The notes below the pieces were generated by a model. That model saw only the letters and a program-made list of their open reading frames with translations. It did not search any database and had not been told where the DNA came from. This document shows, in pieces, positions 21,801 through 60,900 of a stretch of DNA of 64,000 bases. Positions within the stretch are counted from its first letter, which is position 1. Each line of letters begins with the position of its first letter. The position numbers and the translations under genes were made by a program. The stretch lies in NCBI GenBank assembly GCA_036172245.1, contig JAYWIR010000004.1, positions 1,054,001 to 1,118,000 on the forward strand. The letters run 5' to 3'. This stretch comes from Raillietiella orientalis. Its lineage: Eukaryota.

Positions 21801-24690
21801 AAACACCGAGAGACGGCAGCTGACAACCCTAACCAGACTATTTTCAAGTCTCTCTCCTTTATGAGCATTCATTACAGCACCGAAAAAGAAACGACAAATG
21901 ATTTTTCACCTGTTCACGCCGAGGAGCTGATTGTACAAATAAATTTTAACGATAAAACAGTCAAATGAAGTTTCCTTTCCGTTGCAGGAGTGCAGTCTTC
22001 CTAACTGGAGAAGTCTCGGAGGATATCGAAGCAGTCACCGGAAGAGGTGCGCGCAGGGAAAGTAAGGGAAAGGGAGATTAAGATTGAACACAAAAATGTT
22101 TTAACATATTTGGGTGGTAAGGAAAGGGACCACAAAGTGCTCCCTGGTGGCCCCTGCACTCTCTCAAGGATGCCGTCAAGTTCCTCCTGGTTGTGTCTCA
22201 GATGCAGCCATACCTCCACAATCCTTAGGAATGAAGATACGAAAGAGAAGTCATTTTCTTCGCATTGAGATGGTCGCAACTGGGGAGAGTCACCATCGAG
22301 GACCGGCTCTCCGCTTCGCCTGCGAAGGAGTTCCTGAGATCGTTAGAATCATCTCCATGGAATCTCTGGAATTCAATGAGCCATGAAGCAAGGAGAGCTC
22401 TGAAGGTTGCGTGCCGGCACATCCACTATCAAGTGGCGTATATTGGGAGCAACGGATTCACTGCCCATCATGAGAGCACTGTCAATAATCGTAGCTTCGT
22501 TGTGAGGACGAGTCGAAGACAGCAGACGGAGATGATGGTGAAAGTTTCAACTTTTCTGTGATGGGCTGACTCTCTTAACGTGTACGCGGTCGACGAAAAA
22601 GTAAACACAATCCTGAGGGGAAGGTTATTTCCTTTTTGATGGTGTCCTGCTGACATCCTTGGAAGTTTGGGCATGTCGCTGAGTCTCTCGTAATTACAGT
22701 GCTGACGACTCATCCTATGTTTTCCAGAAAGCAGGGAGTCCCTCACACCGATGAAGCATGCGAAGATAGAGTAAGAGCGTCGGCTAGCTTCCGTTACGGA
22801 TGCTGCCGATTCAAGAAGGATTCTTCTACGAAAAGTTCTGAAAAGATTTACAAAACGGATTTGTCTTGTGAGAGCTCGGAGCGCCCACCACGAGAGATTG
22901 GCTCATCACCCCTTCCTCTGAAGAAGGTGCTTTCTTGGTTCAAAGGATCTGCTGCTGCTGTTCTGCAGACCTTCTTTCCTATTTCCGGGGGGGGTGCTCA
23001 TTCTGGGGCTCACCATTATGGCAAATGGCGTTGTTTTAACTCCAATTGCCTTCCACTATCAATCCCCTTGTGTTCCTCCTTCGTATTCTCCCATCTTGAG
23101 ATTTCTTGCATCCTACAATTGAAACTAATGTGGAGCAGTTTTGAAAATGTGGAGCATCCTACAATTGAAACTAATGTGGGCAGCGTTTCTTTAAAAATAC
23201 TTTCTAGCCTCGAATCCCTTCTTTCCCTCCTTTTACTCTTTCGTCAAATAATGTACAGCACGAGAAGGAAACGGCAAAATCTGTGGAGCATTCCTCCTGA
23301 GATTCTCCTTCACGTCTTTCCAAAACTTGTCGGTGGGCTTCCATGTTGCCATATATGGTGCGCAACTGCAGATGAGTCGAATCATCAGGAGCTGAATCTG
23401 TCGTTGATTTCCACTTTTGAATTATTTTATCAAAGAGTAGCCTTCTTTGGCACAAGTCCAGCTGCTCAGTACTGTAGAATGTTGGGATCCGTTCTCCAAA
23501 TTTCTTGGAAAATAGCTTTATGGATGCGAGAACCGTCCAGGTGATGATCGTACCATTGAAGAACAATGCAGACTGGAAAGACATGACAACAGGCCTTTCG
23601 TGTCTGCCCTCAGATGAAGAACGTGAGAATTCAGGACAAAGTGATGGAGTCAATAGATGACCGTGTGAACAGGTGAAGAAGCAGTTTGATAAGCTTTCCA
23701 GGGAGCTTCTTTCCCATTAATCTTTTTTCTTTCGAGTTTTGCTGTGTGAAAATCTGCAGCCTGTGATTCAGTGAATTCAGCTTCCGAGTTTAGTCTCAAT
23801 GCACTCATTCGCTGCTTTTTTGCATCTTTAGCGCGGCCTCTGATTTTATCTCAGCGGTACTTCGAAGATTTCACATCGTTTTGCGATAGGATTTGGAAAA
23901 AACTGACAAGGCTTAGCGTCACTCGCTCCCAAGTAGGAAGGATTCCCTTTCCTGACTTACAAACGTGCTCCAGACCTAGGATATACAAAAGCTTCGTGAA
24001 CGTGAAAAGAGTTGAGATCCAATGGCGCAGGAAAAATCGAACAGGAAGCATCGAACCAACCACATATAAGAGAAACCGTTTTCGGGAATCGCTTCTCGGC
24101 TCGCGTCGGAGGTCACGTGACTGCTGAGGTCTGAGCGCCTGACACCAGGCGTCGCGGGCTGGAATACTCCGAAAGGACCGACTCCGAGAAATGGGTGCAG
24201 CGTATTTTGCAGTTCCCCCTGCAAAATACGCTGGTTGGCCTCTATTCGGGTGCGGCACTGGTAGTGCTTCAAGCCGGATGCCCCTGATGAGTGGCCAGGA
24301 TTGGGAGTTGACCCTTCAGGTTCTTCCAAAAAACAGAATCAAGGAGTCCGGTTCCCTTCTGGGTTCCCATCCGGTTGTGCAAAGGAGCTGTCTCCTCCCC
24401 CTTTCCCCCTTCGGGGATGGACACTCCGTCTCGGTTCATGGATCTGGTGGATTGATGATGCCTCCCCAGAGTGGAAAGAAGCGCGCTGCTCCCTTCGAGA
24501 AGCACCCTTCAGAGAAAATTCGGAAGCGTCGCTTCCGGGTTCTCTTCAGAGGAGTAACAAGGAGCGGTTCCCTTGCGGGTTCCCTTCGGAGAGGAAAAAA
24601 TGGAACAGTCCCCTTCGGGGGTCGTTCCTGAAAAAATAAGGTAATGATTCCCTTCAGTGTTCCTTTCAGAGCCTACCAAGGTGAATTCTC
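18900..24690 (-). mobile_element. heavily decayed, near full-length L1/Tx1-like LINE (5'UTR about 24690-23900, ORF1/ORF2 remnants, CCHC finger near 19150-19230)
   Basis: Structured GAAGGG-rich leader shared with 49300-49912. ORF remnant at 23204-23653. PCLQCLESHRC*HYFIC is a CCHC-like motif near the 3' end. RT motifs are barely recognisable. Confidence 0.4.
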
Positions 24691-25290
24691 ACCCGGGTAC
24701 GCCGAAGCGTTTATTTTAATAAAAATAAACATCCACAAAAGATTGTGGTTGGACTGGTAGTCCAGCCACGTGCATTTTACCGAGATTCTGTCGGGTTACC
24801 GACTCGCAGGCCGGTCGGGTTCGCCACAGCAGCAGTGGTGAGGGGGAAAACAAAAAGAAAAGGAAACAAAAATAAATACACTTTGAGGAGATACGGGAAG
24901 GCATAATGTCCTGTTGGATGTGGTCCTTTGCACCCTTCGGAGGATGCGGGCTCTTGCTGCATAGGGTCCTTCAGATGGGACCATCCAGTTACCATCCTCA
25001 TGAATCGGACAGGGAAGTAAATGACATTCCTTTCTCTGTATCCTCCTCTTGTCTCGCTCCAGGCAGCGACGATCCCGCGTAGGCAGCAGAAAGCTGCTAG
25101 CGAGGCTGCTGGCCGAAGTGCGTCGCGAATAAGCAGGTTTGCAAAGCGTCCTATGGTTGCCGCCGTGGGTTCCTAGAGTCGTGGAAAAGCACTTTCAGAG
25201 GAAACGGTGGGTAACACAATCCACAAGCAGGTGCGGGAGGGATTAGCGCTCCCGCACCTGACACAGTTCGCGTCCACACAGCCGTGATGC
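24690..25290 (-). mobile_element. 3' end of a Tx1-like LINE (CCHC zinc finger plus 3'UTR), inverted relative to the neighbouring copy
   Basis: Minus strand reads DANCVRCG../LPHLLVDC (frameshifted), homologous to PNCLRCGVIESLPHLLLDC at about 28160-28215. It continues into a pyrimidine tract, hairpins and AATAAACG (24715-24708). Confidence 0.75.
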
Positions 25291-28200
25291 GGGCGGGCGT
25301 TGCAAGGGAGGGCCCAGTGCAGCAGCAGCAGCACCGACGCCTGCCACTTTCATGGGAGAGTGCGTCTATCCAGAAGCACTGGGGGTCACTGCAGGTTTTC
25401 CTCTGGAATACTTTTCTCAGGAACTCCGGAGCCAGAGTGGCACATCTCGTAGTAGGGGACTTCAACGTCCACCTGCTTTCTAACGAGACAAGGTCCCTGA
25501 GGTCGTGAACTGACGAGGTATGCATGTCGGTTTACGCGCATAACTTGCTCGCCTGCGAGTCTGAAATGGAAAGGTCCGTGAATCACGTCTACCTCGATGA
25601 TCACCTGCTCCCACGAGTGGGGAGGAGAGGCAAAATGCCTCCCAAGTTTTCGGACCATGACAGGCTGGAGTTCGGGGTCCTCATCCAGGCAAAGGACCTC
25701 CGAACAATGTTTGGAGGATACCGGCGGATTGGCTTAGCCATCCGGAGGCGGCGGAGCATCTTCGCCAGCATGTCCGCGGCTTCGCCATCAATGAACTTGC
25801 AGACTGGGACGATCTGAAGAGATCAGTCTGCGAGTTCTGCAACCGGTTTCCCTTGTACTTGCTACCGCGTGGTCTTGGTGAAGGAGTGAGCAACAGCAGA
25901 GTGTTTCTGCAGGCCCGTTCCTTTTCCAGATGCCAGGACGTCCGGCGACTCGCAGAGTGCTGAGCTGCAAGGCGAGGGCTGAGTGCCAGGTCTGGCAGTC
26001 TGGAGCGGCTTGCCTACTCGAAGACCAAGGCCAAAAATGCTCGGCCCCAGCTGATGTACGGAGAATTGTGAGGCGCTGCTACTCTTCGTTATATACAAGG
26101 ACCCCAACGGAGAAAGTGCTCTCAGAGTTACTTCTGCCGGAGGGCGCTCAGGCTATCGATGAGGAGGAACCCGCTCTTTTCGACGAGCCCTTTATGTTGG
26201 AGGGAATTTCTTCCGCCATCGCTGAGCTTAAAAGACGCAAAGCACCAGGTGAGGATGGGCTACCGCGGAGTTCTTTCAGAGCTTTGCGGCGGAACTCGTC
26301 CCCTGGTGCTGAGTCCCTCGACGCTGATGAAGAAGGCGGGCGATGTCCCTGCTTCCTTCAGCTCAGCGAAGGTGCGTCTCCTGCCGAAAGGCATCTTAAC
26401 AACTGATGTCCGATCACGTTAGTGAACACGGACGTCAAGTTTTAAAGTTGTGGGTCGCGCGCCTTGGGAGAGTCGCGGAGTACGTTATCCCGGAGCAGTC
26501 TTACGCTGTCCCCGGATGGTCCATGAATGCGAACCTGCTTTTAGCTCACACCTGGTTCCAGCTTCAATGGCGCGTAGAATCAGGCAGTCGTGCAGAAGCG
26601 AGAGTTCCTACCTAATGCAAGCGCCAGTGCCTACAGACGGGAGAAGGGTCGGGAGCCTTGGCGGTCGCAGTTGATCTGCACAAAGCCTTCGACTACGTCA
26701 ACCAGGAACTCCTCCTGGAGCGTCTGGAACGCTTCGATCTTCCGACCCAACTTCTGCTGTACCTGCGCTTATGATGGCAGTACGCGTTACTGAACTTTAA
26801 TTTTAGCGGTTGTCGCGTATACAGCGCCGCGGTACGCAGAGGCATCAGGTAGGGCGACAGCTTGAGCCCTCTTCAGCATCTACTTCGAGTTGGTGCTGAG
26901 AGCGTACGGGCTGACGCTGGCCGTCCTGCCAAGCATTTCTCTGTGCACGCCTTTCGTGGCAGCCTATGCCGACGACCTTCTCCTACTGTTGCCCATGTCT
27001 ACTTCGGCTGAATCGGTCGAAGACTTCTTCGAGCTGATGCATCGGGGAGCGGGCATGAGCGTCAACAGAGCGAAGTGCTCCGTCGTACCGGTGGGTGCGT
27101 CGTGGGAGGGCAGGCCGAGTGGATCCGCCTGGGGATCCCCACGGGAAGATACTTCAAGTACCTTGGCGTCCCGTTGAGCCAATTCTGCTCGTCAGAGGCG
27201 CGGTCGGCCTGTCTTCAAAAGGCAGAGTCGTCACTTGGCCCGTTCCTTGACGGCAAGTTCGTCTTGCCGGAACGGGCGTGCATTTGGAACACTTTTCTTG
27301 CCTCCCTCCTCCGCCCCCTATTTTTTTTTGTCCGCTCCCTTATTCGGTGAAGATCCGGGCGCAGCATCTTCTGCGGAAAGCCTTGTGGGGCACCGCAAGA
27401 TCCCGGATTTTCCTGAAAGATTTAACAGGGCTGAGCCAGGACGCTGACTTGGGCATCGTGACCATCGAGAAGATCGGACTGCAGGTGCAATTCCGGCTCC
27501 TCTCCCTGTGTGGGAGATTGTGACCTTCCCATTGGTGTGCCCCGGCACGTCAGATCCTCCAGCGATGTGTTGGCAGCTCAAGACTTTTTTCGCTGCTTCC
27601 GCGCAACCTACGCCGGAGGACTGGATTCGGCTACCCACTGCGCCATCTGTCCTCGTTGCTGCTAGCCCATCAGCTGGAATGCCTGGCAGCAGGAAGCTTT
27701 GGAGCACTGGATCGCCACTTTGGATGTGCATCCAGAGCAACTGAGACCGCTGCAAGATCTCCTGCGCGAACCGCTGGGAAGTATCTTGCAGTACTGATCG
27801 CAATGGTCCCGGTTAGCCGTCTCACCCCTTGCTGCAGCGCTGTCTGCCCTCAAGGCAAACAACGACAGTAACCAACTGGCAGAGTGGGAGTTTTTCTGCA
27901 ACTTTGCAGGAGTCCAGAAACTCATGAGAGGCTGCAAAACGAGCGAGTTGGTGGATGCTGGCACTCCTCGCTTCCGGGCAAAATGACTCCATCGGTGGAG
28001 CGAGCTTCTTGGTATATCCCCCAAGAACTCGTGGTCCCTTCTCTGTGTGTGGATACCTCAGTGTTTCCGCTTCGTTGGAAACAGGATGTTCTTCTATTTC
28101 TGCACTGGAGCTTCCAGTGCAATCAGCGCAGACACCTGGTTTCCGGGGGAGTTGCCTCCCCGAACTGTCTCAGGTGCGGGGTGATAGAATCGCTTCCGCA

Positions 28201-28710
28201 CCTGCTCCTGGACTGTGGTGACTTGCGGGAGTTATGGCGGAGACTTGCTTCGGTACTCCGTCGTCCCCACGACACTGCCATCAGCCTGCTGCGACGCTTT
28301 TTCAGCGAAGGCGGAATGAAGAAAGGACCACAACAATCTGTTGCATCAGCGCCATCACAAAGGTCCGTCTTAAGCTCCAAAAAAGCTCGCAGCGTAAGGA
28401 TGCCACCAGGATAGTCGACAACCTTAGGAAGGCAGCTGCAAGGTGGCCTCATTTGCCCAGAAAAGTCACCAGGGAAATCGCCACCGTCAAGTGTCGCTTC
28501 CAGAAAGAAAGGAACGTTTCAAACCAAAGATCCCTGTCCCCACTCTCCCTTGTTTTTTTTGTTCATTTTGTGTCCCCTCCCTTTTTTTGAAGCCGGCCTG
28601 CGTGCCGGTGGATTTTCTGGGTTGAACATTCTGTATGGGCGTATCTTGTGTCTTGGGGGATACATATCCCTTCAAGTTTGTGCCATGAATAAACGTCCCG
28701 GCGTGACGGA
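25290..28710 (+). mobile_element. L1/Tx1-clade non-LTR retrotransposon ORF2 (APE endonuclease, RT, CCHC finger) with 3'UTR; 5'-truncated and pseudogenised
   Basis: Ordered motifs across frameshifts: VVGDFNV and SDH (APE); KAPGEDGLP, LLPKG, DLHKAFD, RRGIR*GDSLSPL, YADDL, KYLGV (RT); CLRCGVIESLPHLLLDC (CCHC). 3'UTR ends AATAAACGTCCCGGCGTGAC near 28707. Confidence 0.93.
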
Positions 28711-29752
28711 ATTCAAACCACATCAGCGCCGAGAGTCTCAGCATCAGGGGAATGAGCTCCGCTGCAAAGCATTCGTAAAATTCCGCGGGGAGCCCATCCT
28801 CGCCTGGCGCCTTCCGTCTCTTGAGCCCAGCGATGGCGGACGAAAATTCATCCGACGTGAAGGGCTCGTTGAGACATTCGCGTTCCTCCTCGCCGACAAC
28901 AGGAGCATCCTGAGACAGAAGTATCTCCGAGAGAATGTCCTCCGTCGGGGCTTCCGCGTACAGAGAGGAGTAGTAGCGTCTTACCATGCGGCATACTTCG
29001 GCTGGAGCAGAGCTGCCTGCCTGATGGCCATGGCAGCCCACGATCGAGCGCGGGTGGGAGCAGAGACCAGTCTACTAGCCAGGGAATCAGGGGTGCGCGA
29101 TTCCGCCAAACAAGCATGCGATCGGCTGCGTCCTACAGCCACACAAGGTCGAGCAGGGTCTCCGCCTCCGGGTAAAGACGGAGCCGCTTCGCAACTACCT
29201 CCGTAGCACTACCATCGCAGCCACCTCCACGGCCGCGTCCACCGCGCCTAGCGCTGCCTGCCTCGAAGCACCGACTGGCGTCTGTTGTCCTCCTTGGCAA
29301 TCGAGGTGCGAGGAAGGGGCGCTCTCTTCTCCGAGAGCTTCCAGTCGCGCGCACTCTGAGTACAAAACACGCGGGACTGCAGTGCGTGCAACAGCGAGGC
29401 AGACTCAGCACAGGAGGTCGGCTACGGGGAAGCAGAGCAGCGATTCGCGCGCAGCACACGCCCCGGAGGCTGGGCAGCTTCTCCGGAGACAACTGTTGGT
29501 CCTTCCTTGGTTGCCCGAGGGAGCAGCCGCTCACCGCGTACGCAAGCGGCAGCCGACAAGACTTGGAGCGCACGTCTCCCTCATCGTAAGCAGCCGCCGA
29601 AGAGCGCGCTTACAGACAACATGCAAATGATCCTTCCTGCTGATGTCAAGAGACATAAAGCATAAGACTTTTGATGTCAATGCAGGCTGGTCACGGGATC
29701 AGACCGTGATGAGAACTTTCATAGGAACCCCGCATTGCTACAAAATACTTTT
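28711..29752 (-). mobile_element. inverted, internally deleted copy of the same LINE family (upstream segment fused to the RT N-terminus)
   Basis: 28720-29040 encodes YYSSLY...LNEPFTSDEFSSAIAGLKRRKAPGEDGLPAEFY, paralogous to 26040-26270. 29121-29752 is homologous to 55482-56123. Confidence 0.8.
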
Positions 29753-30108
29753 AATACAAAATACTTTAAAAAATACCTCCTTTAATACTGAGGTTTAATG
29801 CTGAGGTTCTCAACTGAGCGATGCTTTGCTGCGACCTCCTGCTAGATCGCTCCATCGAATTACGAGGAACGGGTTTCCGGCTTCCAGATCGAGTTTGCGA
29901 TTCGGTTCTTGATTGTTCCCGTCGCATCAGGCCACCTCCAGCCTCTTACGTTTGCATGGTCTTCTTGAGGCACGCCCGTTTGCTTTAGCGTTTCCGAAAT
30001 CTGCAAGAACCACTTAGACGAAACTCCTCCATCAATATGTCCACAGCCAGTTGCCATGGATCGAAACCGGTAGCGACAAGAGTTGATGCACATTTCTTCT
30101 GTCCATAG

Positions 30109-30529
30109 GGATGACTGCCAGCATTTGCGGAGGCAACGTCACACAAGAGGGAACCATAGGTACACCTCAGTTGCCGAAAAGCAGAACTTGCATCTGGGTA
30201 ATAACTGCACCCAAAAACAGAAGCGTGAAACTCGTCTTCACAACGGTCGATCTCGCAGATAGTGATTGCTTTTACGAGGCGATTGTTGTGAATCACAAAA
30301 ACATCTACAATGGACCTGCGTGAGTAGTTCCGTTCCGCCGCAGGCTTCCAGCATCTGCATTATCTTCTTGAATAGATTCTGCACCGCTGATCAGCTGCCC
30401 CCAGGAAGCGAGTTTGTTTCTCGGGATGAACAAATGGTGGTTATATGGAAAAATGCGGGATTCTCCCAATCAAAAGTCGAAGCAGTCATCAGCTTCGTCC
30501 CTCGGCAAATTCCCGTGCATGCGAAATGA
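30109..30529 (+). pseudogene. orphan CUB-domain exons: duplicated 3' end of the astacin gene
   Basis: Exons 30109-30319 and 30376-30529 encode ICGGNVT...GTIGTP...CIWVITAPKNRSVKLVF..VDL...CFYE...FC...SRDEQMVVIW (CUB), ending in TGA. The upstream intron 29799-29953 matches 63846-64000 (3 mismatches in 155 bp). The phase-1 acceptor fits the phase-1 donor of the EGF exon at 62693. Confidence 0.85.
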
Positions 30530-30749
30530 ATGGTCCCTACCTCTGGATTTTGGCCTCTTTTATGTTCATAAATTGGGAACTTTGGTTTCCAATTTATGAC
30601 AAATTTCTTTTGTTCGCTTCTTGGAGAATTGTTTTTGAGCTTTTGCCTGACATCCATCAGCCATTCCGAATGTTTTGCTTGTCATCGTTGAGAGCTGCTA
30701 GGCGCTCATCATAGGATCTCCATCTTCATTCTCCGACCCGAGTGCTTCC

Positions 30750-31850
30750 AAACCGCGGTATGCATCCAAGTGTGGTGGCGCAAAGAAGAAAAAAAACATA
30801 GTAAACGCCTGCGAAATGAAGCTTCAGCGCTACAGTATATTTGAATAAGAAAAAAGCTTGTTTTCTCAAAGATTTCTCAAAGATGCTCGGGAAGGGCGCT
30901 GTCGATCGCTGGATGGCAGGAAAATATTCGATAAATGGGTAGGCATAACTTGCAGCAAGCAGGTTCTTTTCACCCTCCATGAATAAATTGCTTGGTCAAC
31001 TCTCGGAGCCTCCGATTAAGCTGCGCTACGGCAACGGAAGGAGCTTCAGACACTCTCTTCCCCTAAAGCCGGAAACCTCCGCTCCAAAGTCCACAGTCGT
31101 AAGGTCCGCAGGCAATCTTTGAAGCAAGTGACGGAACTTTCAGCAGGCGCTATCAGACATCATTTGATGCAATCATTTGACCCACTACACCATTTTCAAC
31201 CAGGATGCTGGTCGACCTTTAGAAACCAAGAGCTCTCCTGCTTGAAAACCCACCCGAGGTCAAAGAAATCCTCCCACAGTCACTCAACTCCTCCTGCAGA
31301 CACCATTAACATCCCACTTTACTGACGAAGGGAGATTACTTTTAAGCGTAGTTTCACGTTTTCAGCAATTGCCAACGTCCACCATGCACGATCGCTAGTA
31401 TTGGTAATGGCGGTCGAAGCGGCACCAGTTGGAGGCTGGGAACTCACGTGAGCAATGCAACTGGTGATCTCGCACCATCTGACCAGCTCACTATTGTCCT
31501 TGTACCCCCATCAAAAGCGGCAGACGAAGGCAGTAATGATCCATGAATCCTCTCTCGCCTATTCATGACGCCTCGAGGTTGTTCTCGCATGTGTCGAAGT
31601 CTACCAGACGTCTTCACTTCCGTACACATGGCTGGGGCGTCTGCTGCGGGGCTGAATCTGGCATCTGCGAAAAGACAGTAAGTTTGCTATGCCTGATTTT
31701 GAGTATCCTCATTTTTCTAGAATTCTCGTCGAATAGCGTAATGTCAGAAAATGAGGCTTGTGCCCTGTGACCCACCAGCCTTAAAAGATGCGGAATTTCT
31801 TGGCAACCTAATCGGATGCCCTGATCTGTAAACACAATGGCCATCTGGAG
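30750..31850 (-). mobile_element. possible decayed LINE ORF1/endonuclease junction fragment
   Basis: IPHLLRLVGHRAQASF (ORF1-like) followed by VKWDVNGV, resembling the APE start motif SWNVNG. Many stops. Confidence 0.3.
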
Positions 31851-38634: not shown

Positions 38635-39583
38635 TGGAAAGTGAACCAGCTAATGAAAGTTTTTTCCTTGCACTCCCCCATTAGCTCTGTCCAGCAGTAG
38701 AGTTGATAGCGGTGACTTCTCCTCATTGGAAGAAAGAGAGGAGTTCTTGGAACTGCAAAGTAGTCTGAGTGGCATTAGTCTTGCAACCATCCAGCTGCCA
38801 GCTGTGCAAACTAGTCACCAGAAAGCAAAGAAAATTTCTAGAGTCCCTGAGAGATTATTTAAAATTTTATTTCTTGGGGACTCAGGGGCTGGCAAAAGTT
38901 GTTTGTTGTATAGGTAACATTCTGGGATGCAGAATTTTGTAATTGAATTTGCTTTCCAGATTCTGTGATCAGGAATTTCCTGATCTGGGTATCAGATCCA
39001 CGGTTGGAATGGATGTGCAAGTGCATCAGGTAGAAATAGATGGCCATACCACTTGTCTGCAGTTTTGGGACACTGCAGGTCAAGAATCCTTTCCCAGCAT
39101 CACACAGCAGTAGTTTCAAAGAGTTGACGGAGTCTTCATTGTATTTGATCTGACAGATGAATCAACTTTCCGCAGTTCAAGGCATTGGATGAACTGCATC
39201 AAAGTAATAAGTTAAACTTACAATGATAAACAATAACTTCATTGACAGGAACAAGCTCCCAAAGCTGTTGTTATGCTTGTAGGAAATAAGCTGGATCTGG
39301 TTCGCACTGCCCGTTTTGTGCTCAAACAAGAAGTAGGAACACATCTTGCAGAGGTGATGTTTTTGAGATTATTTCCCGACTTCCGTAACTACTTTATTTC
39401 TTACAGGTGGAAGGAGCTTTGTATGCCGAAACAAGTGCCAAAACTGGGGAAGGTGTGAAACATGCCTTGAGAGATTTTGTGTGTGCCTTATGGAGCTGGC
39501 AAGATAAAGAACTCGAAACTGGAAGTGTAATTCAGCTACAGTCTCCACCTTTCACTCCCTATTACAACTGCTGTAAATCCTGA
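38635..39583 (+). pseudogene. partial duplicate pseudogene of the RASEF-like gene (Rab-domain exons only)
   Basis: Copy of exons 8 (part) to 11. P-loop changed to GDSGAGKS, switch II ERFRS changed to ESFPS, premature TAG at 39111-39113. No upstream exons. Confidence 0.92.
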
Positions 39584-41247
39584 CAGCTATATGCATCCAG
39601 ACAAAATGCTTAAGAAACATAATGTGGTGCCCAAATATACAAGTTTTTAACGAAAAAGAGAATGACTTTGCTTTACAGTCGTAGCAGGTTGTTTATATCA
39701 ACGCTAATGTGAATAATTTATTGTGGCATACGTCCATGTAAATCAAGCAGTTTAAAATACTGAAGACCTTCCATTCGTTCCATAAACCAGCTCATCAGTT
39801 CCTATTGTATAAATGGAAGCATTGGATTTTAAAGCACGTAGACTAATGACAAAAGGTGGACAACGATTACAAAAGACAAGAGGGTGAGTCGACTGGAATA
39901 TCGGTGAACTTTGTTAACGACCGAAAGGGAAAACCTGTGCATAAGGGATGCTAGATACCATCATTAGGGAGGCATGGATTGCTTTTTCAGCATTCAGCCG
40001 TTTACTCCATATTAACGTGGGTTGGCCGAAAGTATTTCGCTGCTTTTCGAAAAGAAAAAAATGGTACTGCAATGAGCCTTTCTCATCGGCATGTTATTTC
40101 TCATGATCATCAGATTTGGAATGATTGCCAGTGAAGGATGATTTTCGACAACCTTGTCGACAAGGTGGAATGCCTTACGATCCAAGGTGCACACACACAA
40201 CGTGTATCCATAGGTTCCACGCAAACGGACGTGTTTAGGTCTTGGAAGTAGCGAACAACCAAACAAGATGCATACATTTTCCGGGGTGTGCAGTGAAACC
40301 ATCGAGTGGTCCACTGCTCCTACTGAAACCATCCTATATGTGGGTCGTAAGGACGAGAAAAGGTCTTGGCTGCAAAGATGGTGTTGGAAAGACCTTTCTT
40401 TCCCATCTGTTTCGACCTTGCCTGTTGAGTACCGGCTGGTGAATCGGAAACCGAAGAGTCCTGCAATTTCTATGCACTAAGCCAAAGCTTATCACGGTAC
40501 TTCCGCGACTCGTAGAATACGCGAGACCAACACACGAAAACAATCCGCGGTGAGCCCCACCAGTTGAATCACACTTTGAATATAACGACAACTCGAAGAC
40601 CACTCGAAAATCAGACTGCAGATCTGAAGGGGAGAGAGCAATGGCGACCACTTTTGTACGCTAATGAGCCCGTATTTCTTGCGGGAACCAGTCTGGAGGG
40701 TAGTCGTAGCTGCTTTCCTCGTTTTCATTTTTCCAGTGCATGACCACAGGCAGTCGGCAGAAGTTTGCACTGCTATACAAAAAGTTTCTGACTTGTTGTG
40801 GCATCCTGACTTGCCTTCAGATGAAGTTAACTCTCACAAGTGTTTCTTCTCTCTTTAACGGCTTCGAGCACGAAATGGACGTGTCGATGTTGTTTATCCC
40901 AACGGAACGGGCATTCCAGAAGAAAAAGACGTGTTTCAGTAGGGCACCCTTACGTAAGCGATGACCACCCTGAAAATTGCCTTGTCAGATGGCAAACGTG
41001 GACACGATATGTGCATCGGAGAGTCGGAATTCGTCGTAGAATAATGGGAACGCTGCTGAGAGAATGTTTTCCGATTCTCGATGGTAATTTAGGAAAACTC
41101 GCAAGGGGTCAGTGCGTTTCTAAAGATTCTGAAACTTCTGTTTCCCTTCCAATGCAATTGTCTTGGAAAGAGTCCTTTGCTCTTACCTACTTCTGGGCTC
41201 GTGATCTCCTAGGCACTAGGAGGTCTTCTAAGAGATTGAAATTAGCT
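38635..41247 (+). repeat. segmental duplication copy 2 (direct repeat of 15912-18526)
   Basis: Near-identical to copy 1 over most of its length, diverged at the left end. Confidence 0.97.
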
Positions 41248-50049: not shown

Positions 50050-53000
50050 CCAGGATTTCCTCGAGGCGGTCCATGGGGAGTGCGCATGCGTGTGAGCAGA
50101 ACAAAGTTGAAGGTTATTCTTGCCGGTGATGCGTGAGCAGGACAGCCAGACTGGATCCGCTTGGGGGCCCCCGTGGGCAGCTCCACGAAACACTTCTGGG
50201 TGCCCTTGGACGCTCCTTCATAAGTGTGGTCCGGCACCTCCATCAGGCAGAGATGGTTCTTCTTCTCCCGTTCTTGGATGGCACTTCTTGCTTGTCGCGA
50301 GTGGCCTCCGTTTGAAATGCCCTCGCTGTCCCCATCCTGCACTCCATCCGTTCTGTTCCAAGTCCTCCACACGAAGAGAAACCGACGGTCTAATGCGGAA
50401 ACTTCAGAAGATCTCGCTGCTCTCCGTGGGCCCTCGGCATCCTATCGCTGAAAGAGAGGGAGATACAGCTTTTCCAAAAATTGGAGGTAACATTGGCGTT
50501 TTCCAGCGGGAGACATCTCCTGAGGCTCGCTGGTTGCGAGGGACTCGAATCCCCATTGCCTAGCAACCGAGACCAGGCGTGGACCTTCGGATGTCCCCTG
50601 GAGCGGATTACCTTGCCGTGGGAGGAACAACCATGGATCTCCTGGGAGGAGGTCACGCCAGGTACAACGCATGGCGGCAGGGGTCGGTGGGCACCCAAAT
50701 TCGCATAACGCGGACTCTCGCGACCGCTGTCCGATCCACCGTCAGCCAGCACGCCAATTCCTTGGACGAACAGTGGCAGAGCAGCAAGAAGCGAATCCTC
50801 GCAACAGCTCTGCCCTCCTTCTAGAAGAGTAGCAACGATTGCCAACTGGCAGCGTGGGTGATCTCGTGCTCTCTGGTATTTGAGACGATAGTCCGAACCT
50901 GGGGGTCCACAGGCCAGCTGGTCCACGCGGAAGATCCTGCTTCTCGTGCTGGAAGATATATCTGGGCATTCCTCCCTAGGGAGTGGTGATCCCTCCCCTT
51001 CATTCGGACTATCTCCGTGCTCCCCTTCAGATGATCAGCATGAGGTTTCGCTCCTCGTGTGCAGGGGCTTCCCGTGTAGCCGGAGACGGCATCACTGGAC
51101 GAGAGAGAGCACGTTCCTGAACCGCTCCGTTTCTGGAAACTCGGAGCGCGCTTACCCACTTGCTCTTGGACGACAGCGATTTTCGTAGCGTGTGGAAACG
51201 CCTTGCGGAGGTTTGGCTCCATTTCTAAGGAGCTGCTGCGGCTCTGCCTCCCCGATCGCAATCACGTACTGCATCAAGAGGATCATGGCATCCCAGTACA
51301 GGCATGAGACGCGCGTCAGCGAGGACCAAAGGCCATCCACCTCTCCACCACAGTAATCACGGATGCAGCAAAATGGTCCCTCCAGAAGAATGGAGCCAAA
51401 GAGGGCGTCTCCTGCATCGCAGGCCTGTTTCAGAGGTCATAGAGGACTTATCCTCTCTCCCTCCATTTATCTACTTAGTCCCTTCTCAACCCTCCCTGCC
51501 CTTTTCTGTATCCTGCGGGTCAGTTTCTGGTTGATTCCCTTTTCGTGCACTCAAAAGTCTCGCTGGATTAATGCCCTATTTTGTTTCTCTCTTTTTCTCC
51601 TTGGGAAACACAAACACCCGAGTATCAACAGATGGCACTGTGTCAGCGTGCGTTGCTAGGAATACCTCAGTGCAACAGTTGCAACGGATAGTCCTGCCAT
51701 TTCAGAGGAAGCGTGGAGCTACCGATCAAAACTGCAGGGATTTTGACGCATGCCAGGGGATCCGCCCAGCAGAGGGGTCCTTCAAGGTGGGCAGCAGGAG
51801 GAAAAGCGCCAGCAAGTTGACTCCTCTTCCAGTACGCCGGTGCTTTTTTCCTTCACAGATGGCCTCCCTCCCATCTTTGTGGTTGGTTACATTCGTTGTT
51901 CTGCTATAGGGAAGACAGCACAGGTGCAAGTGGGGTGCCTTGCTCCCACCCGTTGTTCCTGGAGCTTTCCAAGGTGTCCTTCAACGATTACCGAGCGTAA
52001 TTGGAGAGCCACAGGCACTCGGATTGCTCTGCGATAGAGCCACACCCCCTCTTAGATTTTCTCCCACATTCCAACTCTTCGTGTTTCCGGGCACTACAGG
52101 TCGCGGGAAGGCAGGAGATTTAAATGTGCTCTCTCGCCAATGCAGCCATTAGCCGAAGCTGATAGCTGCAGCGGGACAAGGTTCGTTGGCCGTGAAGTTC
52201 TCGATCCTTCGGGGTCCGTTGAATTTCAACAGGCCACGAGGCTACTCTCTATGCGTGGAGGCAACCAGAGACTCAATGGTGCGTCGTCCAGTGCTCGGCC
52301 TCTGGAGCTAGTCATCGCACTTTGAGCTGTCGCTCCATCCACTCCAGCGTCAGGAGATCCAAGTTTTCCGTCGAATCGCGAAGCCGGCATGTCATTGAGT
52401 CGAACTACCCTGTGCCCAAAGGATTTCTCTCAGGAGAACTTTGATGCCCTTTTCAATCTCTTTGGAACTAACGATAAGCAGAGGGAAGAAGAGCAGGGCA
52501 CAAATGTGCGCCCATCGTCATGCACTCCGTTGAACATTCCAACAGGCCACATTAAGACGACGAGAGGAAGAGAGCTCCTGTGTTGAAACCGGTGAAGTGA
52601 CGTTCTCTTGGATCGTTCGTCCGGCAAGTGGCGATCCGGCAAGCAGCACAAGTCATCACGCATTCCTTCTCCGGGGCTGCATTCTTCCAATTCCTCATAG
52701 GCAAGAATAATGATTCTCCCCTACTTCCGAAGAAAATCCGACGGTGTTGTCGGCAACCGATTCTATCCTGAGTGCCTTGCGATGGCGCACACCTCTTTTG
52801 GCATGGGTGTTGCGCTCCGTACCCTTTGAGTCGGACTCTTTGAGACTCTCCCATCCATGCTAGACAATCGGACTGCAATCCGGAGTCCGACTGCCTGGAG
52901 GGTGACACGCCTTTGGACTGCCACCAGAAGCTGGAATGCCATCCTGGTGGCTTTGTCTCGGAGCTAAGTAGCCATAATCCCCTGTTGCCGTCCTCGAAAA

Positions 53001-54430
53001 CTCAATTTTTGTGCTTCAACAGTGAGACACCGTTGTTGCCTGTGGAGCGACTGCACACTCTTGCAGAATAACAGGGATCTCTGCGCGCACCTTCCATCTT
53101 GGAAGATCTTTCGTGTTCTCACCCTTCTTTGGGTCAAAGGAAGCCGCCGAAAACTCTCGTTCCATTTCCCCTTCATCTCCGTCTGGTCATCGTCCGCCTC
53201 GCCGGAAGCTTGCGTCGGGATCAGCGTAACTGGAATTCCACTCGCCGCCGCCAGCGGCCTTTCAGACAAGCGGTTTCTCTGCTACAGTTTTTGAGGAGCA
53301 CGCAGACCACCAACAGGTGCGGAAGGGACTCCATCGTCACTCAATTGAAACGAGATGTCGGTGCTGGTCACGATAGAAAGTCCTAGCTCAAAATTGGCAC
53401 CCCTCGTGCATCCACTTCAAAGCTGCAAGGAAGCATCCAATCACGGGTGAGGGACCACAAGCTTCTTCGAGAGCGCCTACGCCCAAGAGTTCTTCCCAAT
53501 GAAGGAACGTGGAGAGGCAACATCCAGCGACTCGTTAGTCGAGCAAGCACTTTTGTCGCTCCCGCAGGGCGCAGCAGAACTCCTACCTCTCCGCTTGGCA
53601 ACTCTCGTTGCTTGCTCTTCGGGAACACAGCGGCAAGCGGTGTTACTCCTACTCGGGACCGCTTCGGCCATTCCTGCAACATTTTTCCCGAAAGCATGTT
53701 CCTGACGTGGCCCAGGGGCCCAAGTTCCTCCGAGAACCCTTTCAGGATGTCAACTAGGTACCACTGCCCCCTGTCCGTTACGCATTTCAGTTCATCGAGC
53801 GGAAGGAGACTCGTCGGTGATCTTTCAGAGGTGATGCCAGCTGCCTCAGCGGACAGCCAAATCTCCACATCCTGCATCGGTAGCACGGCAGCGCCTAGAC
53901 AGCTTCCTTGCAGCCGGCGCAACGCTGCAGGATGAGGCGTGGAGGCTCACGCCAGAGGGTAGTCTCCTCCACAATCTGGTGCAAAGTATGAATCCTTGGA
54001 ACTGCACTCACTTTTCGATAGTCTCCAGCGTCAGATGTCAGAAGACCGATGTGGCGCCACCACCTCTGAGGCGGATCTTGGGCCTCTCGGTTCACCGCAG
54101 GGCTTTTCTCTGCAGAAGATGAGCGTGGTTCTTCGCCGTAGGAGGGCTCAGCACCAATGGAAGACAGGAGTCGAAGAAAGGGGAAACAAGGCTGCTCCAG
54201 GTGGCACCCTTTCCATCGAGCGGAATCTGCGAGCAAGGCACCAAGAGCCATCTTCGCATTGGGAAGGAACGCGGACATCGCTCGCCCACTGGCACGCAAA
54301 GGTAGTCTTAGGCGGATCCAGTACGACTGCCCTGCCACTCTCAGGGTGCTCCGGCTGGAACGACGACGGACTTCGGCTTCTTCACGCACGTGTGCGCTTC
54401 CCAACGTATCATTCCTCCAGAGAAGCCGTT
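50050..54430 (-). mobile_element. decayed LINE with RT remnants
   Basis: MDGL...YWDAM (about 51340-51280) resembles PGxDGxxxEFYxxFW. LLF*KE...RF...W...ARVRV (about 50830-50710) resembles the D..KAFD...ARVRVNG region. Upstream part is uninterpretable. Confidence 0.4.
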
Positions 54431-56450
54431 AACGTGGACATCGGCAGCAGGAGAGCAGATCGTCCTCGTAGGCCGCCATGGCCGGTGTGTGCCGGAAGGA
54501 CGTTGGCAGGCTGGCTGGTGTTTCCCTGTACCCGCTCTGTATCAACCCGAAAGATGCTGAACAAGATGGGTCTTGCCTCACTTCCCGTCGCGCTGGCGCT
54601 TCGTGCACGCGGCGACAGCTGAGGTCAACGTTTCTTAGTGCATCGTGCCAATGGACAGCGATCGCCACAGCACCTCCTCCAGCTAACGAGTCCTGTTCCC
54701 CTAGCCGTTCCCACGCGCCTTCGCTGCAACCCTCGGCTTCAGCGTGGCCCAGGTCGGCTGAAGGAGAGCGCTGGACCGTTCGCCCCTGTTCGGCACCGAT
54801 CCAGTCCGCTCCGCGCGACCGAGGGAGTCTCCGCTCGTTCCGGGTATCAGTCTGTTCTCTGGGACGAGTGTTCCCACATTCCGATCACCGTCGATTCCGA
54901 TGACAACGTTCAGCACGTGCTGCTCCTCCCGCCACTGTCAGCCACCTGCTAGGCGAAACACCGATCACCCCGTAAGGGCGGTGGGCAATCGCTTTGACGC
55001 CGGTCGCGTGCACAGTGCCAGCCTCTGGAAGTTCGGCCACTGCGGCGCCTTTTCGCACACAAATCCCGTCACCACGATCACCATCGACCCATCCCTTGCT
55101 CCCGGACCTGTCTAGAGGCTGCAACAGAGGGGTGGTCGGCGCGTCGCGTTCCTGCAGAGACGACCGCAGCCGCCCGGACAGCGCCTATCTCGATGTGCAC
55201 GGAGACCTCCATTCCGGAAGCACTGGCTGGGTAAAAAAGAAACCACCGTGGGTTCGAGGGAAACTCGGTGCACCTGCCCGGGGTCGCGTCATCCGTTCAG
55301 TGGACCACGCTCCCGCGTCCAGCACGCGCGCCTGAGAAAGCGACTGCGCACCCAGCCACGAGATCCGTGACGCGACCGCATCCGAATCCGCCTGCTACGA
55401 GACGACCATCGGCACAGAGGCAGTGGCCGACACAACAGCAACCAGGGAGTCGCACGCGGATGGGCGGAACATTCGGGAAGTGACCGGCTGCGTCCTACGG
55501 CCAAACAAGGCCGAGCGGGGTCTCCGCCTCTGGGGAAAGACGGAGCCGCTTCGCAACTCCCTCCGTGGCACTGCCATCGCAGCTACCTCCATGGTCACGT
55601 CCACCGCGCCCAGCGCTGCTTGCCTCGAAGCAACGACGTGGCGTCTGCTGTCCCCCTTGGCAACCGAGGTGCGAGGAGGCAGTCGGAAGGCGCGCTTTCT
55701 CCTCCGGGAGCTGCCAGTCGTGCCACTCTGAGTACAAGCCACGCTGGACTGCAGTGCGTTCAGCAGCGACGCAGACTCAGCACAGGAGGTCGCCTACGGG
55801 GAAGCAAACAACGAACTCCGCTGCAGCACACGCCCAGGAGACTGGGCAGCTTCTCCCAAGACAACTGGTGGCCCCTCCGAGCACACCCTCAGAACCAGCC
55901 GACCACGGCGTACGCAAGCGCCAGCCGACGAGAACTGGCACGCCCGACGCCCAGATCGCAGCAGCCTCCGAAGAGCGCGCTTACCAACAACATGCAAATG
56001 ATCCTTCCTGCTCATGTCAAGGGCCATAAAGCACAAGACTTTTGACGTCAATGCAGGCTGGTCACGGGATCAGACCGTGATGAGAACTTCCATGGGAACC
56101 CCGCATTGCTACAAAATACTTTTCCGAGGAGCACTGAGAACGGTATCGTCGGAAGACATTCCCTGCTGACACCGCGAGATTCCGTTTCGGGGTCCCTACT
56201 TTCCGCAGTCCTTACAAAGACTCCTGTGGATCCCCGTGGCAGCATTGCGCATCCACGTTCTCGTCCGAAACGGAAAAAGCGCCGGCTGCCCTCAGCAGAC
56301 GAGTAGGGAGACGGCGCTCTCACGGACGCGCTCTTCCGGCCGCACGCAAACCTCCCCGCGCTTTGCAGAGGACTCTTGAGACGATCTGCGACGGTGCTGC
56401 GACTGCTAATTACCCATTCAATGCCGAGTGCGAGTCGCAACACACGACGC
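54430..56450 (-). mobile_element. internally deleted copy of the 25-28 kb Tx1-like family
   Basis: HWHDALRNVDLSCRRVHEAPARREVRQD...AAYEDDLL (54660-54450) is homologous to WQYALLNFNFSGCRVYSAAVRRGIR*GD...AAYADDLL. GDRNV resembles GDFNV. 55482-56123 matches 29121-29752. Right boundary uncertain. Confidence 0.7.
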
Positions 56451-57929
56451 TGCTAACGATACAGAAATTCATGAGTGCCCTCAGAGCACGTAATTGACTT
56501 TGGGATCCGCTCTGCGGGTCAGGTGTGCAGCACGCGTTAAAGGAGCGCGCGGCTTGAAACAAGACCGTGCTGCCTTCGGTGCCAACGAGAAGGAACGATG
56601 GGACTATCGCATGTTCTCTGGCTGGTGAGTGCTCCTTCCTGTCCCCCAGGGTGGCGGAGGACCCCGCTCTGCACGCAAAGATCGCAGTTCCTCACAGACA
56701 GAAGAGGGAAGGTGCGGCTGCAGGGGAATCTTTTTGTCTTGCAGATCACCGCCTTGCTGCCCGCCCAGCACATGCATGCGGCAGCTCTTGCCCGGACGGC
56801 GACGGGGGGATGGAAAAGCCGTTTCGAGGTGAGCATGCCTGCGCGACCTCCTCACCACGTTTCGCCCCCAAGCGGAATGCCGCTTCCCCTTCAATCAAAA
56901 AAAATTCTCCTCCCATGGGCAACTCCGAACTTCGTTTTCCCGCACCTCACTCGGACGAACTCCTCGCCCTCCCGTGGCCACTCGCAAGGAGGACGAGTTC
57001 CCGACGCGAACGAAGGATGTACTCCTCTTGGTCTTCCTTTCGGTTGGGAAAACGGCGGATGCGCGCCTCAGAGACCGCCCCGCAACGCCTCACCATGTCC
57101 AGTGCCAAGCAGGCCCATGGAGACCGGCACGAGAAAGTCTGGAGGGCCCCTCGTTCCGCGGATCACAAGTCCTCACGTTGCCCCCTCCGTATGGGGGCTT
57201 TGAGCAAAAATTCCTACGAGCGGCCCTCAACAGCCTTCCTATGGTGCCCTCCTCTCCCCCCGCTCACCCCACACCAGGATTCCGTTTGTTCGATCGCAAC
57301 AGCGGCAATGGAAAGCAGCAGCGAAGAGCTTCCTGCCTCCGATGCCGCGCTTCCGCTTTCCCCGTCTTCCTCAGACCGGCGACTTCCTCGCTGCAGCGCT
57401 CATCCCCGAGCATTGCAACCGGCTCACCGATCAGTCCTCCCCCTTTCCAGAAGCCATTGCGCAGCGCAAGCGTAGGTGGACTTTGCGAGTCTTTGCGCTA
57501 AAGACGCCGGGCGCTGACCACGGATCTGCACCGCGAGGAACAGCAACCTTCGAGCGCTCCCGACGCCGCAAGTGTCCAACGGACTGAGAAGTCTCCGTGA
57601 GGAATCCTCATCACGTTTTCTACAAGGCAACTCGTCTGCCAAGACCCGTACTCACGTGTGATACGGTTGCACGTGCCATGTGAGCGCACCTCCGTGAGCG
57701 CACCCCAGCGTTACTTGCTAGGGACGCAATCCAATCTGTCTCGTGGAACGCGCCTTTTCCGTAACCCTTCGATTGTCCCCGCACCCGATGCTGAGCTCCG
57801 AAACTGTGAGCGGGACGAAGCCGAAGGATGACGCGATGCACTCGACGACATCCTTCTGCGACCGTCTCCGTGTCCATGATCTTCAGCTTCCGTCGCGACG
57901 CACTCTCAGAGCGCCCGTTTCCTTTTCAG

Positions 57930-60900
57930 GGAATTGGAAAGAATCCACCGCACACTCCTTTCGGAGATGTTCTTCACGAGGGAGACATTGTGCTCACAGA
58001 AGAGCAGCAGTGGTCCTTGATGGAGAGAGCCTGCTTATCAAAAACGCATCTTTGGCCGAAGACTGGACTGTGGGTAGAGGTTCCCTTTGCACTTCATCAT
58101 TCGGGTATGTACCTTTTGTGTACCTAGTTTTGCTCTTCCCCTTCTTCCTCTCTTGCGTCGTGCTGACTCGCAGATTCAGCAGCTTGCAACCCGTCACTTG
58201 GCTTTGGTGAGAGATTCCCAGACCTGGTGCTATACGACTGTACGCTTCGACACGCTTTCCCGGTGAAAGTGTCTTCTCATCTCAGTCATTTTTTGCTTCT
58301 GCTCGCTTCCTCGGAGTCAAGGTGATGCTCATTCTGGAGCGCGAACCTTTAATCTCCGATCTGCCAGAGCAAATAGTGTTCCTTACTCTGCCACATGATT
58401 GTAATCTTAGCTTCCGGAGATCTCAGATGTTCGTTGCTGCTGGCGGTTGAAAACTTTGACCTCTGGACTTGCATCCGATTCTTCCAAGTACCTGAACACG
58501 ATCCTCGTCACAAGATACTGATTGGGAGCTGGGATGGCTGCTGGTCCCGTGTCGGAAAGCATCCGTCAAAGTCAAATTCCCAAAAATTATCCCTACAAGC
58601 TGGTTGCGAACGGGTAAGCGCATTCTATACGAAAATTTGGTCGTTTCGATATTTAGAAAATGGGCACTCACAAAATGCATCGCATTGCATCACCTACCTC
58701 TCTGACTTCTTGTCTTCAGCTCATTCTCTGATTTCGAGGTTCCCAAATTGACCGCAGTGACCCATCTAATGCTTTGAACGGAAAATTTGTGTCCTCCAGC
58801 GTGCCATTGCTTTTCTGGATTTCTGCTCCTCCTCCTTGCTTCCACTATCTTAGCACTCCACCATCTTCGGACCACAGGACCCACGAATCCGAGTACGATC
58901 ATTCTTGCGTAGCGATCACCCTATTGTCGGCAAGGAGCGAATTCCATCCCCTATACTTCTATCTCGGACATTCGTGAGGGTTACTCATGATTATTACCCC
59001 ATTTGGCCACGCAGTGCTCTGGCATCGGCTCCTCGTCTTTTCCTGAGATTGCCCGGCTGGACTCTTGTGACTTTAATGTCAATCTTAGGATTAAGCACGG
59101 TTTACAACGAGGAATCCGGTGATCCACCTCCATTCCCTTTAACTCGATTTTTGTTCTCGCTCCCCTCCTCCCATTCGCTCCGTAGTGCTTTTGGTGCTTT
59201 CACTCTTTGTTTTTCCCGGTGACTGCGGAGAGTCACCAAAGTTCCCTCGCCCATTCCTCCCATTTCGACCTTTCTTTTTTGTTTTTAGTCCCCTCCTCCC
59301 CCATTTGTTTAGGTCCTTCCGTTTTCCTGGTCTCCGTGCCAGTGGTATATCTCCGTTGCTGGTTTTTTGTAGTCATTGGCTGGAAACAACTGTTTCCAGC
59401 TAGTTTATGTTAATAAACGTTTCTTACCCGGCGTGACCTGGTAAGAAACTTTAATGTCAAGAAATGCTCCTCTTGATCTCGGCGCCGTTTGTTTCTCTCT
59501 AATCATTGTACTATTCTTGGTGCATCTGTTGAAGGTGCTAACCGAGCATTCTTTCTATCTTCTGCGAAGCGTCCTGTGCGAAGACAGTCCCCCAGTCACA
59601 TCACTCCATCTCCAATTTTCCTTTAGGAAAGCGCTCCAGTGCACGAATTAGCTCATGCCATTGGATCTCAGCACGAGCACTCGAGGCCGGACAGAGACAA
59701 ATACGTGAAAATTTTGAACGAAAACGTCAACATTTCGGTGGCTGCCAATTTTGAGATTGAAGACTGTGAAACCGAAAACGTCCCCTATGACTACTACAGC
59801 ATCATGCACTACGCAACGCAAGTAAGTTTTGGTTTCCCCATTACCATGGCTGGTGTGCGGAAGAACAGGTGAGGAATGACATCTTCTTTTTTGAATTTCC
59901 ACTTACCCTTGTCGAGTCAAACATTCCTTTGCTACTCAGCTGCGTTCTTCGTGGATGCATTCCGTTCTCTCTGTCTTCCTTTGAACTCGCGACACTCTCT
60001 CAATCCAAGTGTGAAACAGAGACTGTTTCTCCTGGAACACTTTGGAGATGACAGCATGCAGCATGTTTCCCTTATCCTCAATCCTTTCTTTTTCGTTTAC
60101 ACATCTGTCGCAGAACCTTCATCGCCATCGATTGATCAGAGCAGACGCTGAAATGCAGTTCTGTTGAAGAGAATCCTCCCTAACGACACGAAAGACCTGC
60201 GTTATAAAATACTCCTGCGACCTCTCCTTCTGCACGATTGCCTCTGCACGAAACTTCACGGCATTCTTTGCCGCACTCCTTGCAAACTGTGCCATTATCG
60301 GCCTTCATTGCAAGACGATGGAGAAAATCGTTGTCTTTCATTGATGGCTCGAAAGCACACGGAATCACCTACACAAATACGATTCACGAAAAGGAATGAC
60401 CACATCCAACCTCAAGTGCATCCCACTCCATCAACATTTACTAGCAGAATACGACTCCCATGCAGTAGAGATGATGGCCACCATGCAGCCTTCCTAAATT
60501 GAATATACAATTCGCAAGACAAAAGTCAGCTATTTCATGCATCATTTTTTTTTCACATCAGAAAATTTCCTCTCTAGCCGTTCTTTGCGATCCCCGTCCC
60601 TTCATTCTTGCAGCAGGTCTGCGATGCTTTTGTCAGGTTTGACAAGAAATTACAGACTTCAAACGAAATTCCGCCAAAACAATGCATCCTCGCAGACTCA
60701 TTCACGTTTCCACCTCATTTTATTTTTCGTTACGTATTCTAATTTACGTTTTTCAGACAGGGAGCAGCAACGGAAGACCCACCATAGCAAGTCTAAATGT
60801 GAATATGCAAACTTTCGTTGGTGCGAACACTCAAGGATTGACCTTCAACGATGCACTCGTTATAAACAAGAAATACGGATGCATCAGTGAGTTTTTCTCC

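Follow-up and report, generated by a model that had tools for sequence, protein, structure and literature searches.

How does a long interspersed nuclear element (LINE) of the L1 type find the place at which to start reverse transcription when its copies do not end in poly(A)? Poly(A) recognition is a hallmark of mammalian L1. The question is raised by three LINE 3' ends in a 64,000-nucleotide (nt) stretch of Raillietiella orientalis DNA (contig JAYWIR010000004.1, positions 1,054,001 to 1,118,000; "the window" below). The window lies within a 210-Mb animal assembly, and genome-wide counts are over these 210 Mb. A first-pass annotation had named a series of motifs in the three ends. On re-reading the sequence all of them are in place in the three copies, and no A-tail follows. 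We argue that priming in these elements is probably positioned by RNA structure and independent of poly(A). Judging from the copies, the protein of the second open reading frame (ORF2), ORF2p, would bind the folded tail and start at a fixed place. The elements behave like stringent LINEs while being members of the L1 group.

The three ends had been taken for one L1/Tx1-type family, which they are not. They belong to three separate families (F1, F2 and F3 for copies 1, 2 and 3) within a radiation in which at least 14 multi-copy clusters of tails can be told apart. Copies 1 and 3 being of different families, they are neither one family nor a twin-priming inversion. For each of the three ends 40 of 435, 100 and 593 candidates from a similarity search were scored, and 30 loci per end were kept. 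Each end pulls out its own set of relatives, with a sharp stop at one common place. A motif sample, made of 90 places among the first 100 in the list of terminal-motif matches, was pooled with all loci to give 232 ends in 47 single-linkage clusters, 14 of them with at least 2 members and some containing subfamilies. The terminal motif has 1,196 exact matches genome-wide and its reversed control has 0, so it is not due to chance. It is found in 28/30, 28/30 and 21/30 loci of the three similarity-chosen sets; in motif-based samples the terminal hairpin is fixed by construction. Elsewhere, JGI metagenome contigs hold 1 match, which is chance level, with no LINE protein or hairpins nearby.

The L1-type identity holds: the reverse transcriptase (RT) tree and the PDB sequence and fold matches all point to the L1 group. 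An intact relative has a frame of 1,208 amino acids with Exo_endo_phos (APE endonuclease) and RVT_1 domains, downstream of an ORF1 with CCHC knuckles. The C-terminus of the intact ORF2 P0002 carries a Cys/His motif with a weak zf-RVT match. The ORF1 zf-CCHC match has E 4e-6 in L103 and is weaker in L169, L173 and L174; such knuckles occur in plant L1s too and are not diagnostic of Tx1. The best PDB sequence match of intact ORF2 is human L1 ORF2p (E 4.6e-45; R2 has E 7e-16), and its predicted fold also best matches human L1 ORF2p. The RT tree has 54 rows (6/60 were excluded as long or partial), no curated reference set and a long-branch warning with Mucor. There the families group together as one clade (100/100), which branches on a long stem within the L1 group (96/98). 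The best tree puts them outside the clade of Danio BAC82609 and Ixodes, but joining them to it is not rejected by the approximately unbiased test (p-AU 0.30). We take BAC82609.1 to be a Tx1-clade element, which look-ups did not confirm. The closest proteins among 1.84 billion representatives are the metagenome fragments P0149 and P0184 at ~60% identity; the 148 others listed reach at most 39%. On this sequence evidence each of the copies is the 3' end of a different family, and the three families are part of a radiation, specific to this host, of two-ORF L1-group retrotransposons without long terminal repeats (LTRs). An upstream ORF2 is linked to 12/14 multi-copy clusters, the other 2 having just 345-nt loci. 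Outside P0002's own family the median identity of ORF2 C-termini to P0002 is 31-60% across clusters. The tail was kept throughout, so it has outlasted strong protein divergence.

The next question is where the copies end. Target-site duplications of at least 11 nt, most of them 11-17 nt, were found in 47/206 ends. They start 6 nt after the terminal hairpin in 26/47 and 5-7 nt after it in 38/47, and the same search at a control position gave 12 matches. Insertion is by target-primed reverse transcription, as the 5' truncation and the 11-17-nt duplications show. The end follows the pattern T-N-N-N-A-A (positions 1, 5 and 6 are T in 97%, A in 96% and A in 93% of the 232 ends). The target then comes directly, and short tandem repeats are not present at the 3' terminus. 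Of the termini annotated at first, 59447 in copy 2 was right, while 28707 and 24690 in copies 1 and 3 were off; the true ends are 28717 and 24686. F1 duplications begin after TTCAAA (loci L002 and L013). Most copies do not carry poly(A) when the whole genome is counted: A7 directly follows 2 of 1,167 exact ends, and any A7 within 30 nt is seen in 3/232 ends. Both A-tailed copies (L272 and L271) are genuine, with ~12-14 As. One has an 11-nt duplication and the other is an apparent very short insertion with a duplication. A few extra As are at the junction in 5/31 F2 ends, two of which are duplicates.

Each of the 13 multi-copy clusters for which a terminus is listed has AATAAA as its majority sequence, ending 24 nt ahead of the terminus. 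This falls within the usual distance to a poly(A) site. Taken together with the two A-tailed copies, the simplest reading is polyadenylated RNA with a skipped tail. The sequences thus hint that element RNA is polyadenylated and that its tail is normally passed over; slippage on a short A run is an alternative for the A-tailed copies. The same facts can be turned around. The structure could mainly serve 3' end formation or RNA stability, with a relaxed, cis-acting RT starting at the RNA end or at the poly(A) junction. AAUAAA and the hairpins would then mark an exact cleavage site, or protect an end that has no poly(A), and the RT would not read the hairpins. The AATAAA at its spacing, the A-tailed copies, the extra As in F2 and the loops common to families with different enzymes all suit this. 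However, a relaxed L1-type RT should copy an existing tail, yet it would have done so in only those 2 ends. In most families the AAUAAA is also partly paired, which is poor for a plain signal, and hairpin 1, which lies 75-120 nt upstream, is left unexplained. We consider this reading, the strongest of the alternatives, unlikely.

Is the structure itself real? Covariation was scored by anchored counts. For hairpin 1 the anchor used the loop plus pairs 3 and 5, leaving pairs 1, 2 and 4 free. In 12 family majorities 58/60 cells are paired. Of the cells in the free pairs, 33/36 are Watson-Crick against 23.2 expected (0/20,000 permutations; the families are related, so this count and the shuffle counts that follow overstate significance). 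In a set of 55 copies, drawn randomly cluster by cluster and including 50 distinct ones, 87.2% of the 250 cells were paired with 29 two-sided changes (0/500 shuffles), and slid-partner controls paired 16-49%. The covariation therefore persists in an alignment larger than the original three. The compensatory changes first described are real in the family majorities, which are CCGGC/GCCGG (F1), CTGGC/GCCAG (F2) and CCGGT/ACCGG (F3). These are fully paired and still covary. The wobble pairs in CTGGT/GCCAG and CCGGC/GTCGG that had been part of that description are copy-specific decay.

It is very improbable, in our view, that this conservation is only shared ancestry, inter-family recombination or CpG decay without a selected structure. 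The swap of pair 4 from C-G to T-A is of the CpG type on both arms and many copies have decayed stems, as that explanation would have it. However, two of the three swaps (pairs 1 and 2) fall outside CpG, pair 1 swaps three ways (CG 111, TA 37 and GC 7 of 183), and the stretches that separate the motifs cannot be aligned from one family to another.

Hairpin 2 has the same position and a different sequence in each copy, as had been said. Its segment folds at z <= -1.9 in 11/13 cluster consensuses, and the whole tail consensus has z <= -2.3 in 10/13 clusters. A fourth stem, hairpin 3, had been overlooked. It runs across the AATAAA: a GTTTR arm pairs with TAAAC in most families. In clusters 1-5 a stem of at least 5 base pairs (bp) is present in 21/31, 14/30, 22/27 (F1), 13/16 and 9/16 ends; shuffles give 7-23% (17% for F1). 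It is weaker in cluster 0 (9/32 ends). The AG lineage closes this stem with U-A where the others use G-C; the background from shuffles reaches a high 55% there. A candidate mini-pseudoknot would join the CG after AAUAAA to the CG in the loop of the terminal hairpin. Both are exchanged in one lineage (AG/CT in 15/232 ends), and a separate family (L263, L265-L267) has an uncompensated CG/CT in 10/232 ends. The same C-to-A change is accounted for by the G-C to U-A change in the closing pair of hairpin 3 (9/9 and 2/2 ends). Two ideas were rejected. The 16 variant matches that might have given covariation in the terminal stem all resemble decayed copies. A tRNA-like end, suggested by the resemblance of F1 to a T-loop, is not common to the other families and has no Rfam match; seven loci scanned with Rfam models to E 1 gave one chance match, outside the tail, so that the tail does not match a known ribozyme or histone stem-loop either.

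It must be said that several observations weigh against a structure-positioned start, beginning with the overstated significance given above. Pair-count and pair-type measures for hairpin 1 are unremarkable (90/500 and 31/500 shuffles). Its anchor is missing in 49/232 ends, many of them truncated or decayed. Nor is hairpin 1 found in every family: its loop is missing from one six-copy cluster, and in the young intact family the hairpin contains an A.G mismatch. When folds are computed by minimum energy, the repeated CCGG words often find other partners. Clusters 9, 11 and 13 do not have hairpin 3. No variation is seen in the terminal stem between families, so it is supported by its sequence and not by covariation. 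The loops are common to families, so by themselves they cannot give family specificity. No tail-sharing short interspersed element (SINE) was seen, the short copies looking like truncations, in an analysis that made no genome-wide SINE search.

We then ask what the copies insert into. Targets were read by comparing 3' flanks with ORF2, and residue numbers below are those of ORF2. F1 goes to residue 456 antisense in 9/27 ends (7 from the search whose query included this flank, 2 from the motif samples). F2 goes to residue 165 sense in 7/31 ends, and the young intact family also goes to residue 165 (6/15 ends), which is the GDFN motif of the endonuclease. Cluster 2 uses residues 74-75 antisense (7/30 ends), cluster 11 residue 66 antisense (5/5 ends) and cluster 9 residues 1142-1144 (3/6 ends). 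F3 has no recurrent site, with 1/16 flanks in ORF2. In cluster 11 the tails are 97% alike and the flanks 76%. The hosts differ and several insertions have their own duplications, which means that these are independent insertion events. A LINE ORF adjoins only 27/105 of the ends from the motif sample, so the families prefer such sites and do not depend on them. The targets start with family-specific words that are mostly not A-rich. Each tail family keeps its own target, which implies that RNA and enzyme mostly work in matched pairs. In cluster 8 (L109, L115, L134, L222, L241, L247) a related 3' flank that is not ORF2 recurs in 6/8 ends, a repeated target of another kind. The young intact family (L167 1726-7641, L168, L171) forms tandem arrays in which each copy is headed by a 22-24-nt target-like stretch, and this is where the next copy lands.

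These targets bring in another way to set the start. RNA reading through into the flank of a master copy could pair with the nicked strand, leaving the hairpins to export, packaging or translation. Family consensuses extend 3-8 nt into the target word, tandem F5 copies regenerate the 22-24-nt target-like duplication, and SART1Bm makes internal starts at target-like words (accessible part of PMC7265360). Against this, the same 6-nt distance is kept with unrelated targets and at unique sites such as that of copy 2. We find pairing of this kind improbable as what sets the start.

In a structure-positioned start, ORF2p would grip a shared handle made of the hairpin 1 loop and the terminal hairpin. 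So placed, it would begin copying 6 nt beyond the terminal hairpin. Human L1 relies on pairing between poly(A) and a T-tract; here the nick specific to each family, with no more than a few paired bases, would take its place. The element RNA would probably be cut and polyadenylated at the 6-nt terminus, with the tail almost never copied. The matched pairing of RNA and enzyme could come about through cis preference or through the family-specific hairpin 2. A bolder version is possible, and we put it forward tentatively: this may be an animal L1-type RT lineage without poly(A)/T-tract priming, in which the shared tail works as a ruler and causes an existing poly(A) to be passed over. If this is true, the endonuclease of each family would be free to evolve its own target, including the conserved coding sites of competing sister families, and nature would have supplied, in the intact copies, a set of L1-like enzymes that share one RNA handle and differ in their sequence-specific targets.

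Two observations touch on the handle. Ahead of RT motif A, at about residues 545-570, the L166 ORF2 (P0002) has a lineage-specific insertion of ~15-20 residues that is basic in P0002 and P0001 and is also in P0149 and P0184. It is modelled as a long helix plus a low-confidence loop and is a candidate RNA contact. Cluster 9 (L127, L204, L196, L240, L249) has kept the terminal module and lost the CUGCGN loop and hairpin 3, making it a natural deletion variant.

How much of this is new? The comparisons here refer to the accessible parts of the papers cited. Structured L1-clade tails have been proposed for the monocot LINE1-1_ZM group and for Chlamydomonas L1-1_CR, and 9/233 L1 families in flowering plants and 5/15 in green algae have no 3' repeat (PMC3472496). 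Those elements are like ours in being of the L1 clade and having a conserved 3' hairpin with compensatory stem changes and a conserved loop. They differ in having one hairpin in ~50 nt together with SINE partners, and poly(A) forms the end of L1-1_CR (PMC3472496). Here we have an animal, 3-4 hairpins over ~130 nt, a fixed 6-nt end and family targets. The first-pass annotation's suggestion that the system is undescribed may thus hold for this instance only, since the principle of a structured L1 tail was already proposed (PMC3472496). The literature searched, mostly without subscription papers, did not describe this tail, nor an L1 that skips a tail at a fixed distance.

In the L2 clade (UnaL2, ZfL2-1 and ZfL2-2) binding of the stem-loop by ORF2p has been shown, with the stem interchangeable and the loop sequence important (PMC4176376). 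The 3' stem-loop as the likely ORF2p handle is what our elements would share, here going by sequence. L2-clade LINEs have family-specific loops and short terminal repeats (PMC4176376), whereas ours have common loops and no repeat. Target-specific LINEs of the Tx1 clade (Tx1L in Tx1D, Keno, Kibi, Koshi and the crocodilian Tx1-Mar, Tx1-8_Crp and Tx1-9_AMi) share an L1-group ORF2, the ORF1 CCHC and family-specific targets, which may lie in other transposons (PMC4494074). Their reported targets are DNA transposons, LTR elements, small nuclear RNA (snRNA) genes or microsatellites; here they are coding sites of sister LINEs. The SINEU elements thought to be mobilised by Tx1-Mar carry poly(A) (PMC4494074). 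Zepp of Coccomyxa is also an L1-type LINE that amasses nested clusters, but it nests in itself with one cluster per chromosome (PMC3446292) and ends in poly(A) (PMC3472496, Table 1), while ours have cross-family sites and many dispersed insertions. Human LINE-1 ORF2p is the best sequence and fold match and has the same domain order. It primes on poly(A) with T-rich nicks; here there is no poly(A) and the target words are other ones.

The past need for a structured tail in the L1 clade rests on a few plant and algal cases. This lineage offers many variants of one tail, a base-precise start and intact ORF2 frames, with which the switch between stringent and relaxed priming can be put to the test in an enzyme of the L1 type. 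It would also be relevant to RNA-templated, site-directed gene insertion, provided that tail and target choice are modular.

Table 1. Parts of the three copies, their hosts and duplications, in window coordinates
Feature	Position	Strand	Basis
Copy 1 (F1) ORF2 remnant, broken and 5'-truncated, endonuclease to RT to C-terminal zinc knuckle	25368..28500	+	tblastn
Copy 1 pyrimidine tract of the 3' untranslated region	28535..28589	+	sequence; likewise in F1 copies
Copy 1 hairpin 1, 5-bp stem, CUGCGU loop	28593..28608	+	covariation across families
Copy 1 hairpin 2, family-specific sequence	28653..28675	+	sequence, folding
Copy 1 hairpin 3 region, GTTTG arm opposite AATAAAC; AATAAA 28688-28693	28676..28694	+	stem counts in F1
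Copy 1 terminal hairpin, its 3' arm decayed, followed by 6-nt end TTCAAA; terminus 28717	28697..28717	+	F1 comparison
Copy 1 host, ORF2 piece of other family	28718..29013	-	85% to P0002 residues 359-455
Copy 2 (F2), complete 365-nt 5'-truncated insertion amid astacin exons	59083..59447	+	astacin matches both flanks
Copy 2 hairpin 1	59327-59342	+	sequence
Copy 2 hairpin 2	59379-59400	+	sequence
Copy 2 hairpin 3	59403-59418	+	sequence
Copy 2 AATAAA	59412	+	sequence
Copy 2 terminal hairpin	59427-59441	+	sequence
Copy 2 end TAAGAA	59442-59447	+	sequence
Copy 2 target-site duplication, 13 nt, 5' copy	59070..59082	+	sequence
Copy 2 target-site duplication, 13 nt, 3' copy	59448..59460	+	resembles F2 target in GDFN codons
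Copy 3 (F3), 5'-truncated	24686..25415	-	sequence, tblastn
Copy 3 ORF2 C-terminal remnant	25418-24942	-	tblastn
Copy 3 hairpin 1	24814-24799	-	sequence
Copy 3 hairpin 2	24767-24747	-	sequence
Copy 3 hairpin 3	24730-24709	-	sequence
Copy 3 AATAAA	24715	-	sequence
Copy 3 terminal hairpin	24706-24692	-	sequence
Copy 3 end TGAGAA	24691-24686	-	sequence

The three copies in the window (Table 1) are in different states. In copy 1 tblastn with P0002 spans residues 146-1199 at 37-60% identity, and the RVT_1 and zf-RVT matches of the remnant are both weak. It sits antisense at residue 456 of its host ORF2, the recurrent F1 site; the rest of that host ORF2 was not found 5' of copy 1. Copy 2 lies within an intron of a host gene, where the local word resembles the F2 target. 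A target-site duplication was looked for at copy 3 and not found. The terminal hairpin is present in all three as first annotated; the stem has decayed in copies 1 and 3, whereas copy 2 has a longer one through a private insert. Folded singly against shuffles, copy 1 does no better (z -0.08), and copies 2 and 3 have z -4.78 and -3.12. The private insert of copy 2 (6 nt, window 59421-59426) is complementary to the copy's own 3' end, extends the terminal stem and is missing from other F2 copies. Its sequence suggests a possible origin by fold-back templating. At 95% identity, copy 3 together with its flank is found again ~180 kb away (L062, G000:C4:1259586-1259984), which is a segmental duplicate and no new insertion.

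The window holds other repeats. Positions 15912-18526 and 38635-41247 are a direct duplication of 2.6 kb at 98% identity. Another repeat, which adjoins the copy 1 host, is found at 29120-29752, 55482-56123, 29799-29953 and 63846-64000, with copies 85% and 98% alike. More distant L1-like ORF2 remnants, at ~30% identity to P0002, lie at 51640-52365 and 53790-54650 (-). Among the host genes there is a rhodopsin-family receptor exon at 3779-4261 (-), and there are astacin protease exons at 58377-58748, ~59630-59830 and 60643-61038 (+), with copy 2 among them.

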